Source of the DNA: Candidatus Altimarinota bacterium
GTDB taxonomy: Bacteria > Patescibacteriota > Gracilibacteria > BD1-5 > UBA6164
Length of the DNA: 64,000 nucleotides
Assembly (NCBI GenBank): GCA_037444775.1
Contig: JBBILU010000006.1
Span: 8,899 to 72,898 of the forward strand
Direction of reading: 5' to 3'
Below, piece after piece: positions 8,914 through 47,625 of the stretch; position 1 is the stretch's first letter, and every line of letters starts with the position of its first letter. The notes below the pieces were generated by a model. That model was not told the DNA's origin. It made no database searches and was given only the letters and a program-made list of their open reading frames with translations. The position numbers and the translations under genes were made by a program.

Positions 8914-10194
8914 ATGTTTGCATTCCAATTATGAAGAGAATTTAAGCTGTCAATTGCTGAAATATTAGCAGTTTTTCCAGATATAAAAATAATAAATTTC
9001 TCAAAAGAAATTTTAATAGCTGATAATATTTTAAAAAAAGAAATTCTAGAAAAAATTAATTTTTTAGGTTGAACACAAAAAGTTATTGAGATACCCTACT
9101 CTACCATCTCCTTTGGAGTAGATAGTGTAGATAAGAATTTTGAAGAAATTATTTTAGAAAAAGCTAAAGAAAAAGAAGGAAAGTTTAATTACTGACTAAA
9201 TATTTTTTCAGACAAAAAAAATGTAGATTTGAAAAAAAATCTCTCAAAAATAAAAAAATTTCTTAGAGAAAATGATATAAATTCAAGATTTATAAATAAT
9301 GATTTCAAAAATCTTAATTCTGCTCAAATAATTTGAGAAAAGTTAGTAAAAAAAGAAACAGATTTTAATATTATAGAATTAGAAAATAATAATTATTTTT
9401 GAAAAACTATTTGGATTCAAGATATTAATTCTTATTCCAAAAGAGATTATGATAAAGAAAGAGATATGCAAATTTGAATGCTTCCTCCAAAACTAGCTCA
9501 AATTATGATAAATTTAGCATCTAATTTCCCCATACCCCCTAAAATAGGGGGAAAACAAAATTTTTATCCATCCCCTATTTTAGGGGTTTATAGGGGTAAT
9601 ATTATTTATGATCCTTTTGTTTGACTTGGAACGGTTTTACTTGAAGCAAAACTTATGTGATTTAAAAAACTTTTTTGAAGTGATTTGAATGAAAAAATGG
9701 TAGAAACTGCAAGTAAAAATTTGAATCCCCCTGCTTTCAAGATCCCCCTTATTAAGGAGAACAAGAATTATATTGTAAAAATTGAAAAACTTAATGCAAA
9801 ATTTATAAATGAAGCTAATTTTTGGAATGAAGTAAAAGATTGAACTATAGTTACAGAATGATATTTATGAGAAGTTATGACTCAAAGTAATATTAATTTA
9901 GATAGAATACAAAAGCAAAAAGAAGCTTTATTAAAAATTTATAAACCTTTTTTTGAAAATTTAAAAAAATGAAAGTTTTCTTGAATTATTGTAATTTCTT
10001 TTCCATTTTGGGAAATAAAATGAAAATTTGTTTATTTTGAAGAAATTTATGAGGTTTTAAAAGAATATTCTGAAATAATTAATTTTTTTCCAGAAAGTCT
10101 TGATTTGAAAACAAGTAAGTCTTGAAGTTTGTTTTATAAAAGGGATAAACAACTTGTATGAAGAGAGATTTTTAAGCTTAAAATAAAAAAATAA
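8914..10194 (+). CDS. SAM-dependent RNA methyltransferase (UPF0020 / Trm11-like)
   Basis: MLPPKLAQIMINLA ... IIYDPFVGLGTVLLEA ... FGSDL motifs. Frame verified at 9478, 9601 and 9721. Carries three or four in-frame repeat insertions. Confidence 0.6.
9094..9130. repeat. Family A-like palindromic element inside CDS
   Basis: ccctactctaccatctcctttggagtagatagtgtag, translated as IPYSTISFGVDSVD. Confidence 0.6.
9527..9599. mobile_element. Family B MITE-like element inserted in frame in the methyltransferase gene
   Basis: tccccataccccctaaaataggggg-N20-cccctattttaggggtttataggggtaa. Terminal inverted repeats are homologous to the element at 46489-46571. Translated SNFPIPPKIGGKQNFYPSPILGVYRGN, directly before the SAM motif. 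Confidence 0.75.
9727..9760. repeat. Degenerate GC-rich palindromic insertion inside CDS
   Basis: tccccctgctttcaagatcccccttattaaggaga, translated NPPAFKIPLIKE. Confidence 0.4.
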
Positions 10195-39055: not shown

Positions 39056-41182
39056 TTAAATATTTTTTAAAAATTCTTCTAAACTTATTACAGAAATTCA
39101 TAACAAATTAGCTTTTTGTAACTTACTTCAAGCCTTTTCTCAAGCAAGTAAAAAGTTAGTATTTTTTGAAACCGAAGAAACAAATTCTCATCAACTTTTT
39201 TCTAAAATTTCTACTAATTCATCACGGGAATATCACTCAAAACTTCCAGTTATACAAACTTTTTTTCAGAAAAATTTATTTTGTGCCATCCTCTCTCCTC
39301 TAAGGAGAGGGTTAGGGTGAGCTTGTGTTGATGTGGAATTATCAAACTCCAAAACTTCAAATAAATCTTTAATAATTTTTTTGTGAGCATCGTTGGAAAA
39401 ATATTCTACCAAATTTTTCGCAATTTCTGGTCAAATATCAGGTAAACTTATTAATATTTCTATATTTTCAAAAGCTTTCAAAAATATTTCTAAGTTAAAT
39501 TTCTCAAAACTTAATGACAAAATATATTTTTCAAGAGTTTTTGCTGTTTTTTTACCAACTCCAGAAATTCAAAGAGCTGTAATAAATTTTTTTAAATCAG
39601 TTTTTTTAGCTTCTGAAACAGATGAAATTAAATTAGAAACAGATTTTTCTTTAAATCATTCAAGTTCAAGAATTTTTTCTTTTTTAGATGAAATTTTGAA
39701 AACATCAACTATATTATGAATAATTCAAAAATTTAAAAATAATTCTACTTGTTTTTCTCAAAGTCAATCAATATTAAATCATTGCTTCCCTACTGCAAAA
39801 GCAAGTTTTTCCGACTTTTGAGCTGGACAATCTACAGAATTTGGACAATAATATCTAACTTTATCTTCATCTTTTTGAATTTTTGTATTACAACTTGGAC
39901 AAAATTCTGGTGGAAGAATCTTTTCTAATTTATTCTCTTCTTGGGATGAGCTTACAACAGAAATAATTTTTGGAATTACTTCTCAAGCTCTCTTCAAAAA
40001 AACATAATCTCAAATATTTACTCCTAAATTTTCAACTTCTTCATAATTATGTAAAGTTGCTCTTTTTACTGTTACTCATCAAATTATAACTGGTTCAAGA
40101 TTAGCTACTGGGGTAATTGTTCCTGTTCTTCAAACTGAATGTTCTACAGAAATAATTTTACTTGTAAAAATTTCTGCTGGAAATTTATAAGCAATTGCAT
40201 ATCTTGGATGATGTTCTGTTTTTCATATAGTTTCCCATAAATGAATATCATTAACTTTCAAAACAAGTCAATCAATATCAAAATCAATTTCTTTTTTTGT
40301 ATTTCAGAAATTTTCAATATTTTTTATAACTTCCTCAATTCAATTACAAATTTTGAAATAAGAAGAAATTTCAAATCATAAAGTTTCTAAATATTTTATA
40401 ACAGAAAAATAAGCATAACTTTTTCAAATATAAAATAGAAAAAAATCTTGTTTAAACTCTCATAAATCATAAGCAAAAAACTTCAAGTTTCTTTTTTCTG
40501 TTAAATTTGTATCCAAAGTTCTAAGACTTCAACTTGCTGCATTTCTCGGATTAGAAAAAACTTTTTCTCAATTTTTTATAGCATCTTTATTTAATTTTTC
40601 AAAGCTAGAAATAGGCATAATAACTTCTCATCTAACTTCTAAATCTCATAAATAAGAAATTTTTTTAGGAATATTTTTTATTTTTTTTACATTTTCAGTT
40701 ACATCTTCTCATAAAATTCAATTTCATCTAGTTATAGCTTGAACAAATTCTCAATTTTTGTAAATTAATTCTACTCAAAGTCAATCAAATTTGAATTCCA
40801 AACAATATTCAATATTCTTCAAAACTAAAAAGCTGTTATTAGATACTAATTTCATAACTCTCTCATCAAAATCTCTTAAATCTTTTTCATTATAAGTATT
40901 ATCAAGACTAATCATAGGTCTTGAATGTTTTACTTTTGCAAAAGTTGATTCTTTAACTTCAGCTCAAACTTGTCCTCAAAATTTTTTTTCTAAAGAAAAT
41001 TTCTCTTCTAGAAATTGCAATTTTTTGAGTAAATCATCATAATCTTTATCACTAATTATTGGTGATTGTTTATTATGATACAAATCAGAATGATATTCAA
41101 GAATTTTTTGCAACTCTAAAACATCTTTTTCACTAAAATTATCTAAGTTTTTTTCTAAAAATATTTTTGATTTCTCCAACAT
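39056..41182 (-). CDS. ligA: NAD-dependent DNA ligase
   Basis: CLEFKFDGLGVE (KxDG), zinc finger CPSCNTK...YYCPNSVDCP, HhH repeats, C-terminal BRCT (KKVCITGSF...). 708 aa. Palindromic insertion lies in the HhH-BRCT linker. Confidence 0.95.
39290..39322. repeat. Family A palindromic element inside ligA
   Basis: cctctctcctctaaggagagggttagggtgagc, translated (minus strand) AHPNPLLRGER. Confidence 0.85.
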
Positions 41183-41650: not shown

Positions 41651-41683
41651 AAATATTCCCTAATTCTTAGGGAGTATTTTTTT
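41651..41683. terminator. Bidirectional hairpin terminator
   Basis: tccctaa-ttc-ttaggga flanked by an A-run and a T-run. Confidence 0.6.
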
Positions 41684-42476
41684 ATAAATTTTTCAAAATT
41701 TCATCAATAATTTCTTCACTTAAAGCAATTGCAAATCAAATTCATTGACTTCAAGAAACAATTGCTGTATTTATTCAAACAACTTCTCAAGAAATATTTA
41801 AAAGTGGTCAACCTGAATTTCAAGGATTTATTGCAGTATCAGTTTGAATTAGTCAAGTCAAACTTATTCCTGAATCTTGAATTTTTCTATTTAATCAGCT
41901 AATAACTCAGAAAGAAACAGAGTTATCAAATTCAGCTAAAGCATTTCAAATTGCAATTGCAAATTGTCATATTTTTACTGAATCTCTTTTTGCAAAATTT
42001 AAAGCTTTGAAATTTTTCTTTGATTCAATCTTAATAATCGCTAAATCTGTGTTTTCTACAAAAGCTAAAACTTTCGCATCAAATTCTTCTCACGAGCTCA
42101 AAATAACAGTATAAGTTGCATTTTGTTCACTAACTACATGTTTATTTGTAAGAATAACTCAATCTTTTCTTATAAAAAACCCAGTTCAACCTCAAATTTT
42201 TTGATTTATACTTCCAACTTTTTGTCTAAAAAATCCCCATGGGTCTCACCTGTAAATAGGCATATCTTTTTTGATTATTATGCTAACAACACTTGGAGAA
42301 ATATTTCTTACTATATCTATAACATCATTTTGCAAATTTCATAAATTTGAAGAAGAAATATTTTTTTCAGCTTTATTTCAATTTTGATTTACTATATTTG
42401 CTCAAATAAAACCTGAAAATATTCAAAAAATTCAAGTAATAATTAAAATAAAGAAAATTAATAAATTGTTTTTCAT
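41682..42476 (-). CDS. HtrA-like trypsin-fold serine protease without PDZ domain
   Basis: N-terminal TM, GTGFFIRKDGVILTNKHVV (His), DLAIIKI (Asp), GNSGGPL (Ser). 264 aa. Confidence 0.8.
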
Positions 42477-42527
42477 AATTATTTTTATATAATCTAAAAA
42501 ATTTATTTGATAATTTAACAAAAAATA

Positions 42528-44039
42528 ATGAAAAAACAAGAATTTTTAGAAAATATTACAGTAGAAAAATTAGTTTTTGGAGGAAAATGATTTGCTAAAC
42601 ATTCAGATTGAAGAATAATTTTTATTACATGAGGAGTTGTTCCATGAAGCATTGTTAACTTAAGAGTTCTAAAAAAGAAAAAAGATTATATAGAAACTCA
42701 AGTTCTTGATGTTGTGAAAAAATCCAATTTAGAAAAAGTACATCCAAATAATATTTATTGAGAATGTTGAGGTTGTAAACGGGTAAATATTCCTTATATA
42801 GAACAATTAAAAATTAAAGAAAATCAAGTAAAAGAATCTCTTAATTTACTTAAAAAATATAATGAAAAATATAATGAAAATTCTTTTTCATCAATTCTTC
42901 CATCTCCTTTAGTTGATTGATATAGAAATAAAGTGGAATTTTCTTTTGGAAAATTAATTAGTGCAAAAGCTGGAATTGAAGAACATTTTAATGTTTGATT
43001 TCACAAACAAGGAAGTTTTAGCCAAGTTCAAGATTTTGAAGGTTGTATTTTAATTGATGATTTAGCTAATAAAATTTATAAAAAAATTAAAGATTTTTCA
43101 AAAACTTCTTGATTACCTGTTTATGATCAAAAAACTTGAGAATGATTTTTTAGACATATATTGCTAAGAAGAACTTTTTTTGCAAATGAAATTATGATTG
43201 TTTTTAGTTTTAATGATAAATACCATACACAATCCATCCTTAGTAAAGAGGGAGTTAGAGGATATTCTGCCTTTATCCAAGAAATCAAATCTTTTTTTCT
43301 TGAATTAGCAAAAGAATTTAGTGAGATAAAATCTATTTATTTGTCTTATAATTCAAATAAAGCTGATATTGCAATTTGAGAGCTTGAATTAATTTATTGA
43401 GAAAAAACAATTAAAGAAAAACTTTTAGATTTAAATTTTGAGATTTCTCCAACAAGTTTTTTTCAAACAAATTCTTATTGAGCAGAACTTTTGTATTCAA
43501 AGGTTTTAGAAATAGCAGAGGCTCACCCTACCATCTCCTTAGAGGAGAGGGATAACACCCCCTCTCCACTGAGGAGAGGGCTGGGGTGAGGTTCTAAAAC
43601 TGTCCTAGATTTATATGGTTGAACTTGAACAATTTGAATGATTTTTGCTAAGGCTTGAGCTAAAAAAGTTTATTCTGTTGAACTTGTGAAATCAGCTTCA
43701 CAAGATTGACAAAATAATGCAAAGAAGAATAATTTAGAAAATATAGAATTTATTAATGCAAAAGTTGAAGATTTTTTAGAAGATTATTTAAAAACTTCTA
43801 AAAAAGCAGATTTGTTGATTATTGATCCACCAAGGGCTTGAATGCATCCAAGTGCTTTACCAAATATTTTGAAATTTGATTCAGAGCAAATAATTTATGT
43901 AAGCTGTAATCCAAGCACTTTAGCAAGAGATTTGGAATATATTTTAAAAAATAGCACTTACAAAATAGATAAAGTTATTCCAGTTGATATGTTCCCACAC
44001 ACTCATCATATAGAAACTATTGTAAGTTTGAGAAAGTAA
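42528..44039 (+). CDS. rlmD: 23S rRNA (uracil-5-)-methyltransferase RlmD/RumA family
   Basis: TRAM-like N-terminus, Cys cluster YGECGGC, FFQTN, VLDLYGGTGTIG SAM motif, IIDPPRAG, YVSCNPSTLARD. 503 aa. Confidence 0.9.
43521..43591. repeat. Composite family A element inside rlmD
   Basis: gctcaccctaccatctccttagaggagagggat-aaca-ccccctctccactgaggagagggctggggtgagg. Translated AHPTISLEERDNTPSPLRRGLGGG, immediately before the SAM-binding motif. Confidence 0.9.
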
Positions 44040-44073: not shown

Positions 44074-45309
44074 TTACTTCCCTAATTTTTCCTCAATTCT
44101 AATAAGTCTATTATATTTAGCAATCCTATCAGTTCTTGATAAACTTCCAGTTTTGATATATCAAGCATTTACAGCAACAGCTAAATCAGCTATAAAAGTA
44201 TCTTCTGTTTCTCAAGATCTATGAGAAATAATTGAAATCATATCATTTTCTTTTCCTAGATTAATTGCATCAAGAGTTTCACTCACTGTTCCTATTTGAT
44301 TTAATTTAATCAAAATTGCATTTGCAAGATTTTGTTCAATTCACATTTCAATTCTTTCAATATTTGTTACAAATAAATCATCTCAAACAATTTTTATTTT
44401 GTCTCAAAGTCTTTTTTGCATTTCTGCCCAACCTGCAAAATCATCTTCTGCCATTCAATCTTCTATTGAAAAAATTGGATAATTATTTACCATTTCTTCA
44501 TAATAATCACATAATTCACTACTTGTTAAAATTCTATTTTCTCATTTCAAATTATATTTTCCTTCTTCATAAAATTCACTACTAGCAACATCAAGAGAAA
44601 TTTTAATTTGATCTGTTGTATAACCAGCTTTTTTAATTGCTTCAATAACAGTTTCAATTGCATGTTTATTTGAATCAAAATTTGGTGCAAAACCTCATTC
44701 ATCTCAAACTGCAGTTACTTGTCATGATTTTTTCAGAATTGATTTCAAATTATGAAAAACTTCTGCTCACATTCTTACAGCTTCTTTTATATTTGGAGCT
44801 CAAACTGGAACAATCATAAACTCTTGAAAATCTAAAACATTATCAGCATGACTTCATCAATTTACAATATTCATTAAAGGAACTGGTAAAATATTTCATT
44901 TTCCCCCTCAAAGAAATTCAAAAATTTCTTTATTTTCAGATTTTGCACAAGCTACAACAAAAGCCATAGAACAACCCAAAATTGCATTTGCTCAAAATTT
45001 AGATTTATTTTTTGTTCAATCTAATGCAATTAAAAAATTATCAAATTCTCTAACATTAGAAAAACTTTTTCAAACAATTTCTTTTGCAATAATATTATTT
45101 ATATTAGAAACAGCCTTTAAAACTCATTTCCCTAAATATCTGGCTTTATCTCAATCTCTTAATTCAAGAGCTTCGTGCACTCAAGTACTTGCTCAACTTG
45201 GAACAATTGCACTTCCCTTCCCGTTTTCTAAATTCAAATCAACTTCTACAGTAGGATTTCATCTAGAATCTATAACTTCTCTAGCTTTTACAGTTACTAT
45301 TTTATACAT
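44074..45309 (-). CDS. eno: Enolase
   Basis: [15 protein letters not shown]...[16 protein letters not shown]...[18 protein letters not shown].... 411 aa. Confidence 0.95.
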
Positions 45310-45395
45310 AACTTTATTAGTTTAAAAATAAGATATTCGAATTATAGACATTTTTTTTTTAATGCAAGAAAAAAACTAGATTTAATTCTAGTTTT

Positions 45396-45551
45396 TTACA
45401 TATTAGCAACTGCAAGAGAAGCTTGTGTAATTTGTAATGCTGGTAAACAAGACATTCAAAGAATCAAGGTCCAATGTACAACTTGTGACATAGGTTTTCA
45501 GTCTACAACAGAATCATAAACTTTTTCTTGCCAATTTTTTTCTTTTTTCAT
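45396..45551 (-). CDS. Hypothetical small protein
   Basis: 51-aa ORF with a hydrophobic C-terminal half, followed by a CTAG hairpin terminator (45369-45397). No recognisable family. Confidence 0.3.
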
Positions 45552-45876
45552 AATTTTTATAAATTAGGAAATAAAATATGTTGCGAAGTTATTGTAGCAT
45601 AAAATATGATGTTTTGTCAAAAAAAATGGAGCAAATTTTTATAAACTTTTTCCATTTTCACTTTTTAACTTTTTTTTTTACAAAATAAATTCAGTTAAAA
45701 TTTATGTATAAAAATTTACAACAAATTTTATATTACAACACATTTTACAAAAAAGTCTATAGCAGATTTTAATTAAAAAATCAAATATTTACGAAATAAA
45801 AAATAAAAAATCTTTCTTTATTATAAGCCAATAAGTCTACTAAGAACTTTTATAAATATTTTTTTTTACAAAATTT

Positions 45877-45905
45877 TTGCACAAAATTAAGATTTGAAGT
45901 ATAAT
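45877..45905 (+). promoter_or_regulatory. Sigma-70-like promoter of the long ORF-free transcript
   Basis: TTGCAC (45877-45882), 17-nt spacer, TATAAT (45900-45905). Confidence 0.55.
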
Positions 45906-45911
45906 ACAGTT

Positions 45912-46443
45912 GTAAGTTATTAAAAACAACTTACAAAGAACCTTAACAAAATCTTTACTACTCAAGTCGGAACCTACAAAAATCCAGTAGATAATCCAAA
46001 AGCAAAAAAACCTTTTCTAAGAAATTAGAACAAAAATAAAAACAAAAACGGTGAGGAGAGTACAAAAAATTATATCCATAACTAAGTTAATATTTTAAAA
46101 AAATTAGTTTGGTTATGGATATAATAAAACTCAATTATAAATCACCAAAAACCTTAAAAAACGGATTAAAAACAAAAGTTTTTAAAATCCACAAAAACAA
46201 AAAATAAAAGAGCAAGGTGAATAGCTCTTAAAAAATCACCCGAGAGTGGTAAAAGATTAGAGTCAAAACTAATCAATTAGTGTTATGTTTGATTCAAGAG
46301 AAAAAAGGATTATTTCTCACAAAAACAAAAAGTTCCTTTTCCCCTAAACTACCAAAAAAAAATTATTTTAGTTTAGGTATGTGAATCTGAACTACAAACA
46401 TAGCTAAGTCAATTTTACCCAAAACACTTAGCTCTTTTTTTTT
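45912..46443 (+). ncRNA. Candidate long structured ncRNA of about 530 nt, unknown class
   Basis: No ORF longer than about 25 codons in either strand even with TGA=Gly. At least 8 hairpins, e.g. gttgtaagtt/aacttacaac, ttatatccataac/gttatggatataa (13 bp), cctaaacta/tagtttagg. Linkers are CAAAAA(C)-type. Ends in agctaagt/acttagct plus T9. Confidence 0.5.
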
Positions 46444-46488
46444 GCCTAAAATTTAAAATTTCATATAATCAAAATAAATAATAAAAAG

Positions 46489-46571
46489 TTACCCCTATAA
46501 TCCCCTAAAATAAGGGGATTAAGAAAAATATAAAATGTTTTTTTCCCTATTTTAGGGGATTATAGGGGTAA
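46489..46571. mobile_element. Family B MITE-like element, intergenic copy
   Basis: ttacccctataatcccctaaaataagggg ... ccctattttaggggattataggggtaa. Terminal inverted repeats of about 28 bp around an AT-rich core. Confidence 0.75.
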
Positions 46572-46614
46572 TATTAATAGTAACATTATTTTTTTATCCT
46601 ATAATAAAACCCTT

Positions 46615-47625
46615 ATGAAGAAATCTATTGAGAAAATTGCTAAATTAATTAAAAAATCAAAAAATATTTTGTTAATAAACCATATAAGAATGGATCCTGA
46701 TGCTTTTTGAAGTTTGGGAGCTTTTTATTTTTTATTAAAAAAATTAGGAAAAAATGTAATTGCTACAAATGATGAAAATCCACAAGATATTTTAGTAAGT
46801 TTTACAAAAGAGAAAAAAAATTTTTTTGAAACACAAGTAAATTTATCTGAATTTAATCCTGATTTAATAATTAGTTTTGATGCATCTAGTCTTGACCAAT
46901 TATGAAAAAAATATGAAGAAAATAAAGAGATTTTTAATAAATCAAATTTTGTTGTAATTGATCATCATATTAGCAATAATCTTTTTGGGAAAATAAATAT
47001 TGTTAATACAAAAGCATCTTCAACTTGTGAAATAGTTTTTAAATTAATCAAAAACTTAGGTTTTTTTAAAAAAATTGATTCTGAAATAGCAAGTTTACTT
47101 TATACTTGAATAATAACTGATACAAATATTTTTTACAACTCAAATACAACAGAAAAAACTCTAAAAACTGCATCAAAATTAATAAAACTTTGAGCAAATT
47201 TTAGGAAACCTATTTTTGAATTTTATAGAAAAAAAACTTTTAACAAAACTAGACTTTGGGGAGAAGTTTTAAGAGAAATAGAACAAGAATGAAATATAGT
47301 TTACTGAATTGTAAAACCAGATTTTTTCACAAAAACAGAAACAAACGAAGAAGATGTTTCTTGAATAATTAATGAATTTCTTGCAAATATGGAATTTTCA
47401 AAGGTTTGTTTTTTGCTTTATCCATTAAAAGATTGAAAAATAAAAGCAAGTCTTAGAAGTATTTCAGCAGATTATGATGTTTCAAAAATTTGCCAAAGTT
47501 TCTCTTGATGATGACATATTCAAGCTGCTTGATTCTCTTATATTCCCGAGAAATCAAAATCATTAGATGAAAATATGCAAATTTTAAAAAATATTTTGAT
47601 AGAAAAAATTAGAGAAATTTTATAA
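46615..47625 (+). CDS. nrnA: DHH-family phosphoesterase (NrnA-like oligoribonuclease / pAp phosphatase)
   Basis: NHIRMDPDAFGS, VVIDHH, ITDT, DHHA1 motif SGGGH with all three Gly as TGA (47506-47514). 336 aa. Confidence 0.85.

Follow-up and report, generated by a model that had tools for sequence, protein, structure and literature searches.

What does a gap of about 1 kb between two genes hold if it does not hold a protein gene? We asked this question of positions 45553-46614 in a stretch of 64,000 nucleotides (nt) of DNA from a Candidatus Altimarinota bacterium, which at its full length is called the window below and has a G+C content of 24%. The gap is flanked by a 51-codon open reading frame (ORF; 45399-45552, minus strand) and by the gene nrnA (46615-47625, plus strand). 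A preliminary description of this DNA, made from the letters, had pictured here a promoter-to-terminator unit of hairpins separated by A-rich linkers. Our analysis left little doubt that the gap contains the gene of a real structured non-coding RNA and that this RNA belongs to a new family. The transcript, of about 532 nt, would run from 45912 to 46443 on the plus strand, with a 5' end placed from the -10 box of the promoter and a 3' end at a run of nine U residues. We regard the family as categorically new in that it is without a detectable relative; its function may prove analogous to a known one.

To our knowledge, bacterial RNA classes that are both large (>400 nt) and intricately folded number no more than a handful. 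Such complexity has historically marked ribozymes, the cores of ribonucleoproteins (RNPs) or, recently, self-assembling RNA cages. Bacteria of the candidate phyla radiation (CPR) account for much of bacterial diversity, and we know of almost no lineage-specific non-coding RNAs described for them; AT-rich genomes defeat the GC-based intergenic screens behind most known RNA classes. The RNA reported here comes with a 30-member alignment, a secondary structure backed by covariation, two tertiary pairings and defined invariant single strands. It would supply a missing Rfam family and allow a better annotation of Gracilibacteria genomes.

Compensatory changes support a fold of at least 13 helices

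Homologous intergenic regions were looked for in relatives of the window. A scan of genome contigs with a single NrnA protein gave no loci, and an alignment of NrnA homologues was required; with this alignment, the GTDB species representatives yielded 80 loci. A search with the window RNA using nhmmer then found full-length homologues on the plus strand in 13 genome loci reached via NrnA. These matches occurred in loci whose NrnA was 46-53% identical to the query, and no match was found in loci with an NrnA 38% identical or less. Independently of NrnA, a degenerate 33-nt pattern of the best-conserved hairpin gave 23 further metagenome loci. The same pattern found no match in viral contigs, and searches of phage genomes and plasmids for the RNA gave no match either. 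A covariance model of the 3' domain found no copies beside nrnA homologues of 38% identity or less, nor in the locus L011 (loci are numbered L001 and so on). In total, profile searching collected fragments and 30 distinct members at full length (405-586 nt), the latter with 56-66% identity to the window in aligned columns. As far as sampled, the family appears to be confined to one Gracilibacteria clade. The RNA was single-copy in the window according to the profile search, with the nhmmer profile match covering 45911-46439 (E = 1.9e-74), and the locus L006 carried two diverged tandem copies (L006:2683-3139 and L006:3482-3930). The closest relative of the window, a Logan contig (L001), allowed the RNA to be compared with its neighborhood. 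The RNA region was 97.4% identical between the two, the NrnA gene 94.8% at the DNA level, the third codon positions of nrnA 92.6%, and the 240 nt upstream of the RNA 89.7%. Therefore, the RNA is conserved more than its surroundings.

The fold was examined on the alignment of the 30 sequences. RNAalifold predicted 56 pairs, 46 of which had compensatory double changes, and an all-against-all scan of the alignment columns added two tertiary pairings, giving a model of 66 pairs. In this model, 94.7% of the cells formed standard pairs and double changes were found at 49 of the 66 pairs, so that the covariation in relatives, which the preliminary description had proposed as a check, proved extensive. 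None of 500 shuffles reached any of the observed measures. When the partners were slid by 1 to 3 columns, pairing fell to 28-51% and the covariation score dropped from 0.49 to 0.05-0.13. With the 3' domain realigned alone and the register of the helix P7a corrected, double changes were present in 31 of 38 pairs. These results showed that a fold of at least 13 helices is supported by compensatory changes. Conserved G-U pairs are also abundant in the family (with counts such as UG:23 and GU:22). Since these would be A-C mismatches on the opposite strand, the plus strand is the RNA strand. The minimum free energy of the plus strand was -108.7 kcal/mol, compared with -67.3 ± 5.8 kcal/mol for shuffled sequences (z = -7.1), in line with the claim of many stable hairpins; the minus strand gave a z of -4.5.

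The same data bear on the idea that the gap is an element acting at the DNA level, such as a replication origin or a regulatory region, or that it encodes the RNA of a mobile element (a retron, an omega RNA or an intron remnant). The AT-rich region with repeated boxes upstream of the RNA, and an adjoining insertion that resembles a miniature inverted-repeat transposable element (MITE), both described below, would suit such an element. However, compensatory changes that include G-U pairs on a single strand are meaningful only in an RNA, and the RNA keeps its chromosomal place, with ligA on one side and nrnA on the other, from species to species. No gene for a reverse transcriptase, TnpB or IscB was found beside the RNA in the window or in the neighborhoods of the relatives, and, as noted above, viral contigs, phage genomes and plasmids held no matches. 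This explanation is largely refuted by covariation, and we consider it barely credible.

The anatomy of the RNA can be followed along the window, with all elements on the plus strand. At the 5' end is the hairpin P1 (UGUAAGUU at 45911-45918 and AACUUACA at 45928-45935), which was present in all members and retained its pairing with different sequences in L016, L101, L098 and L008. Next comes the 5' strand of P2 (AAUCUUUACUACUC; 45950-45963), whose 3' strand lies at 46244-46258 (GAGUGGUAAAAGAUU). P2 is a long-range helix that closes a multi-helix 5' domain, with double changes in 9 of 10 pairs. Between its strands lie the hairpin P3 (45969-45997; loop AAAAAUCCA at 45978-45986), the variable hairpin V1 (46015-46030), a near-invariant single-stranded A-tract (A-tract 1, ACAAAAAUAAAAACAAAAA; 46030-46048), the variable-length hairpin domain V2 (46050-46146), the variable hairpin V3 (46163-46190), a second single-stranded A-tract in which the A positions are invariant (A-tract 2, ACAAAAACAAAAAAUAAAA; 46191-46209), and the P5 hairpin (46209-46240). 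A-tract 1 is an exact 19-mer in most members, with positions A124-A137 invariant. The two tracts have the form (YAAAAA)3 and are located within the junction. V2 is closed at its base by GGUGA (46050-46054) and UCACC (46142-46146) and holds the long stem that had first been placed at 46070-46125, which we confirmed as a hairpin at 46069-46125 with 28-nt arms that are 86% complementary. The size of V2 varied from 6 to 52 bp among members, with almost no V2 in L097, L100 or the L015 group, and its base pairs changed between members yet remained complementary. P5 is formed by AGAGC (46209-46213) and GCUCU (46224-46228) around the loop GGUGA (46216-46220), with double changes in 4 of 5 pairs. Downstream of P2 are the variable hairpin V4 (46260-46295), the hairpin P6 (GAGAAA at 46298-46303 and UUUCUC at 46313-46318; double changes in 6 of 7 pairs) and the three-part helix P7 (46332-46349 and 46371-46392; double changes in 15 of 18 pairs), which consists of P7a (GUUC/GAAC), P7b (UUCC/G-GAA) and P7c (CCUAAAC/GUUUAGG).

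The RNA consists of 47% A. The repeated A-rich linkers of the preliminary description were recovered, with CAAAAA present 11 times in the window RNA versus 1.8 expected, an over-representation of about six-fold, and YAAAA present 26 times versus 10.9 ± 2.5. Across the family, the invariant nucleotides cluster in unpaired segments, namely, the two A-tracts, the loop and linker of a pseudoknot, the kissing loops, UAGAAUGG and the loop of the terminator. Invariant unpaired clusters are the usual mark of RNAs that work through tertiary contacts or partner binding.

Two tertiary pairings were part of the model. The first, found de novo by the column scan, is a kissing interaction between AAUCC in the P3 loop (45981-45985) and GGAUU in the P6 loop (46307-46311). 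The two partners switch jointly (AAUCC/GGAUU, AACCU/AGGUU and AAUCU/AGAUU); such joint switches distinguish even the close relatives L082 and L091, as well as the two L006 paralogues. This helix was 98.6% paired, with UA:23 and CG:7 at columns 87/568 and CG:17 and UA:12 at columns 89/566; covariation cannot separate intra- from intermolecular pairing of the kissing loops. The second is a probable H-type pseudoknot, in which the loop of the 5-bp hairpin P5 (GGUGA; 46216-46220) would pair 8-9 nt downstream with UCACC (46236-46240; UYACC in the family) across an invariant A-rich linker. The pseudoknot helix was 98.7% paired. One of its pairs was GU:22/GC:8, and a single double change was observed (CGUGA/UCACG in L005). 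Two GGUGA/UCACC pairs had previously been suggested to form long-range or pseudoknot contacts. Both were present, and the one at 46217/46238 is this pseudoknot and is compatible with covariation; the one at 46050/46150 corresponds to the base of V2. In the upstream L006 copy, the pseudoknot was mismatched (GGCGA versus UUACC) and the terminator was weaker.

Other pairings were considered. A pseudoknot of the P6 loop AAGGAUUA with a downstream GAUCU was discarded, as the column scan and the pair counts showed kissing with the P3 loop instead; GAUCU pairs with UAGAC as P7a. For pairing of the GGUGA loop with UACC in the terminator loop, the CGUGA/UCACG change in L005, where the terminator loop is unchanged, favors the adjacent strand. 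Pairing of the A-tracts with the U-rich J1/2 was dismissed because J1/2 varies while the tracts stay constant. P7a and P7c share words in opposite order (GAUCUA...UAGAC and CUAGAC...GUCUAG), and in L017, L085 and L092 (A5 columns 38-55 and 81-104) an A-to-G change occurred in all four P7a/P7c strands together, which would preserve an alternative two-hairpin fold. A switch between P7a/P7c and this alternative was considered on account of the shared words, but L006, L010, L014 and L098 are unable to form the alternative.

Predicted transcript boundaries and reading frames

A sigma-70-type promoter, TTGCAC-17-TATAAT, was seen directly in the sequence upstream of the RNA, at the place first given for it (45877-45905, plus strand). 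Its -35 box is at 45877-45882 and, after a 17-nt spacer, its -10 box is at 45900-45905; a promoter scan listed neighboring registers at 10 of 12 matches. The -10 hexamer was found exactly 6 nt before the GTAAG of P1 in all 30 homologues, 27 of which had TATAAT, and many homologues had a TG-extended -10 box, TTGNNN at 17-nt spacing being frequent as well. Farther upstream, an array of five WTACAA(A/C)A boxes (45678-45873, plus strand) has copies at 45678, 45716, 45733, 45745 and 45866. The five TTACAA(A/C)A repeats listed earlier were thus all recovered, all on the plus strand, whereas about 0.2 copies of TTACAAMA in this interval would be predicted from the window-wide density. In relatives, WTACAA(A/C)A boxes recur around -220/-205 and -150/-142 relative to the RNA start, and the upstream boxes there include the palindrome TTGTATACAA. 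The array may be a regulator-binding region, with the boxes as a candidate transcription-factor operator for the RNA promoter. The boxes remain beside the RNA in the window and in L001 although ligA is no longer adjacent there. Another box, TAAGCCAAT (45824-45832, plus strand), precedes the RNA start by about 85 nt. Most homologues have it at a similar distance, and in L006 it stands ahead of both tandem copies.

The intrinsic terminator at 46402-46443 (plus strand) was found as described. It comprises an 8-bp outer stem (AGCTAAGT at 46402-46409 and ACTTAGCT at 46426-46433), a 4-bp inner stem (TTTT at 46413-46416 and AAAA at 46421-46424), a conserved ACCC loop (46417-46420) and T9 at 46435-46443 (U9 in the RNA). 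This terminator was missed by a simple scanner because its loop is longer than 8 nt and it has few G-C pairs. Both stems covaried across the 30 homologues, with double changes in 10 of 13 pairs, and the degenerate tandem copy L006b was the sole member without a U-run.

We also examined whether the gap could encode a small protein. In this organism TGA is read as Gly (translation table 25), as backed by an in-frame TGA inside the DHH motif of NrnA, DPDAF[TGA]S. The preliminary description had stated that the gap has no ORF above about 25 codons, which was wrong: with TGA as Gly, one frame is free of stops for 67 codons (46253-46453, plus strand) and another for 58 codons (45843-46016, minus strand). 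The error is harmless to the reading as an RNA, as neither frame is conserved. Among the homologues, no conserved reading frame and no shared start or stop was found, and the open stretch around any conserved block varied from 14 to 131 codons depending on the member. A small-protein gene, which had been named as one of the findings that would count against an RNA, was therefore rejected: the frames are open over differing extents, and the likeness of the peptides merely mirrors the conserved nucleotides.

Genomic context and probable independence from nrnA

The product of the nrnA gene in the window is a DHH/DHHA1 protein of the NrnA type, and its best relatives in the database carry the annotation Gracilibacteria NrnA. 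According to ORF clustering, nrnA lies downstream of the RNA on the same strand in 27 of the 30 loci, and likewise in L001. On the other side, a gene of 670-760 amino acids is divergent and about 350 nt upstream of the RNA in 24 of the 30 loci; its KxDG and EIDG ligase-type motifs suggest that it is ligA, for an NAD-dependent DNA ligase. The neighbors of the RNA include ligA, nrnA, pyk and eno. The preliminary description had raised eno and nrnA as possible neighbors in relatives. This held for nrnA, which is conserved, and not for eno, which is not a general neighbor; ligA is found instead.

The frequent presence of nrnA downstream raises the question of whether the RNA is a regulatory leader acting in cis at the 5' end of nrnA, in the manner of a riboswitch or attenuator, and gates passage of the terminator into nrnA in response to a signal such as nanoRNA, pAp or linear dinucleotides. 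Its position on the same strand, 20-250 nt upstream of nrnA, in about 22 of the 30 loci, including loci found without NrnA, would fit a leader, as would an intrinsic terminator with a conserved loop at its end. The H-type pseudoknot with an A-rich linker would fit as well, as several small riboswitches use such a pseudoknot. However, a length of 405-586 nt far exceeds that of known riboswitches or T-boxes, and the riboswitch models of Rfam gave no match in the gap or in ten homologue loci. An opposite-strand transporter-like gene lies between the RNA and nrnA in four loci (L009, L012, L013 and L014) and a same-strand ORF in another (L085), and the first L006 copy precedes a second RNA copy, not a protein gene. 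The all-against-all column scan found no second covarying partner (antiterminator) for the terminator strands, although a weak or non-covarying one would escape it. Moreover, a promoter-like TTGCCT-16-TATAAT (46442-46469, plus strand) overlaps the end of the U-run, with the same sequence in L001, and would probably serve as a promoter of nrnA. The inserted genes in five loci, the tandem duplicate in L006 and this promoter-like site after the terminator argue for an independent RNA acting in trans and not for an nrnA leader, which we consider improbable. A motif, YGYCTAAAATTT, follows the terminator U-run directly in most members. It is kept in L009, L012 and L013 and diverged in L014, where the next gene is not nrnA.

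The window itself departs from the usual order of ligA, RNA and nrnA. Its ligA gene is at 39056-41182 (minus strand), and about 4.7 kb of other genes are inserted between ligA and the RNA. These comprise genes for a trypsin-like protease (41682-42539, minus strand) and an RNA methyltransferase-like protein (42528-44039, plus strand), both labeled from a reading of their translations, and eno (44074-45309, minus strand). In the window, nrnA has kept the RNA together with the region upstream of it. The 51-codon ORF (45399-45552, minus strand; TGA as Gly), which eno adjoins immediately to the left of the gap, is unannotated and begins with MKKEKNWQEKVYDSVVDGKPMSQVVHW; it is absent from the matching region of L001.

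On the right side of the gap, outside the RNA, a MITE-like palindromic insertion of about 113 nt (46481-46594) lies between the RNA terminator and nrnA. Its arms (46489-46515 and 46545-46571) are 27 nt long and 96% complementary. The element is missing at the orthologous site of L001, which indicates that it is a recent insertion between the RNA and nrnA and not a part of the RNA. A diverged second copy was found at about 9527-9600, inside the table-25 ORF 8914-10194. The hairpin of the MITE-like element attracts spurious sub-threshold Rfam matches to plant MITE-derived microRNA families.

Proposed action and comparison with known RNA families

Taken together, these observations lead us to favor, on balance, an independently transcribed gene (45912-46443, plus strand) whose product, an A-rich structured RNA, would act in trans as a compact folded scaffold rather than as an mRNA leader. 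Its functional surface would consist of the invariant unpaired elements, namely, the two A-tracts, UAGAAUGG and the ACCC loop of the terminator. These would most likely be binding sites for a protein partner, or else the source of A-minor or A-A contacts, either inside one RNA copy or from one copy to another; the output could be sequestration, RNP assembly or catalysis. Such contacts are proposed because other large ornate bacterial RNAs behave in this way (PMC12286853).

Several points weigh against this reading or soften its parts. In the 22 or so loci mentioned above, nrnA follows the RNA directly on the same strand, and occasional read-through or some cis effect on nrnA may occur. The ends of the transcript were placed solely from sequence signals, and the step to a scaffold or binding platform draws on patterns of conservation. 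The alignments were MAFFT based and the members are phylogenetically related, so that the shuffle statistics overstate independence, and the pseudoknot depends on a single double change. The distribution was sampled solely via NrnA-linked loci and one sequence pattern.

A narrower form of binding, akin to the sponge analogy of the preliminary description, would be that of a strict protein sponge of the CsrB/RsmZ or 6S type, in which the A-rich linkers are equivalent sites that titrate a global RNA-binding protein. The over-representation of CAAAAA-type linkers in the window copy agrees with this idea, and both invariant tracts can be read as at least six A-R-N triplets; the distal face of Hfq binds (A-R-N)-type sites. 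Like CsrB/RsmZ and 6S, the RNA has a gene of its own, is probably abundant and carries conserved single-stranded motifs, which are putative protein sites. However, only two A-tracts are conserved, whereas the remaining A-rich linkers, as present in the window copy, are variable or missing in relatives, and the members share one elaborate covarying global fold, not a string of equivalent hairpins. CsrB/RsmZ carry an array of equivalent GGA hairpins; here there is one conserved loop GGA (AAGGAUUA), which covaries as the kissing strand and is AGAUU in six members. In contrast to 6S, a closed rod with a central bubble, this RNA places its two conserved A-tracts within one global fold. We therefore regard a strict sponge as quite unlikely and retain the scaffold acting in trans as the preferred reading.

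We also considered a highly diverged housekeeping RNA (RNase P, transfer-messenger RNA [tmRNA], signal recognition particle [SRP] RNA or 6S) that Rfam would fail to recognize in an AT-rich lineage. The RNA is single-copy, has a strong, constitutive-looking promoter and is conserved across the clade, as such an RNA would be. RNase P RNAs of CPR bacteria are known to diverge so far that they fall below Rfam thresholds (PMC8172020), and they offer a parallel, being housekeeping RNAs that escape the default thresholds in the same kind of organisms. However, they still matched Rfam at lowered thresholds: every circular CPR genome, including two of Gracilibacteria, gave an RNase P RNA in this way (PMC8172020). 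In contrast, at E ≤ 10 with permissive filters, none of the four families was matched by the present RNA in the window or in the ten homologue loci. Specifically, the RNase P covariance models gave no match at E ≤ 10 in 45300-46800 or in the ten homologue loci, and P4-type strands (GGAAAGUCC and ACAGAA) were not seen in the family consensus. ARAGORN found no tmRNA in the window, there was no match to the Rfam tmRNA clan and no conserved frame, and neither a tRNA-like T-arm nor a CCA end was seen in the consensus. There was no match to the SRP clan at E ≤ 10, and the domain IV hairpin of SRP RNAs, with its GNAR loop and conserved symmetric and asymmetric loops, was not seen in the consensus, and there was no Rfam match to 6S in the gap region of the window or the ten homologue loci. 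The architecture differs as well. In all four families the ends pair with each other, whereas those of this RNA do not: its 5' end forms a local hairpin and its 3' end the terminator, an architecture that cannot be reconciled with RNase P RNA, tmRNA, SRP RNA or 6S. RNase P RNA has its ends paired in its own P1 and a P4 pseudoknot; 6S, at about 180 nt, is a rod whose ends pair and whose large central bubble mimics an open promoter, in contrast to a multi-domain RNA of 405-586 nt. A housekeeping RNA is thus very unlikely.

The wider comparison with Rfam 15 gave the same picture. At the gathering threshold, only two tRNAs were found in the window, none of them in the gap. At E ≤ 10, the gap gave only chance-level sub-threshold matches, those to microRNA families all falling on the MITE-like hairpin, and in ten diverse homologue loci there was no match within the RNA that recurred across members. 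We found no prior description of the RNA in the literature. The preliminary description had taken the RNA to be none of RNase P, tmRNA, 6S or an intron and had left room for a known family to turn up; its first view agrees with these searches and with the architecture, and no family was matched.

One module of the RNA has parallels elsewhere. The geometry of P5 and its pseudoknot is similar to that of H-type pseudoknots with an A-rich third loop, such as the cores of preQ1-I and SAM-II riboswitches and the pseudoknots of telomerase and viral frameshift signals. In such pseudoknots, the A-runs line a helix groove. Unlike in the riboswitch cores, P5 and its pseudoknot here form one module of an RNA of 400-590 nt, and nothing points to a ligand or to a part in gene control.

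As a whole, the RNA is most like the large ornate RNAs OLE, ROOL, GOLLD and raiA. Their covariance models gave no match at E ≤ 10, and their hosts are Bacillota, Fusobacteria, phages and others, whereas the RNA described here is found in Gracilibacteria, is not phage associated and is extremely A-rich (47% A). All of them are nevertheless stand-alone genes for RNAs of about 400-600 nt with many covarying helices, conserved unpaired nucleotides, variable peripheral hairpins, kissing pairings detected by covariation and conserved A-rich elements. The conserved A-rich elements and the kissing loops of OLE, ROOL and GOLLD make kissing, A-minor and A-A contacts, some of them between copies, and in ROOL and GOLLD some pairings seen by covariation and assumed to be intramolecular proved to be intermolecular (PMC12286853). 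A bolder form of the trans-acting scaffold, which we put forward tentatively and consider rather unlikely, is a new ornate RNA machine, that is, a higher-order assembly of RNA only or of RNA and protein, or else a Gracilibacteria-specific ribozyme or RNP core. In the assembly form, the kissing loop between the P3 and P6 loops (L3-L6) would be intermolecular, and the (YAAAAA)3 tracts would provide bridges of the A-minor or A-A kind, on the model of ROOL, GOLLD and OLE. The likeness to OLE, ROOL and GOLLD is a resemblance in kind, not homology.

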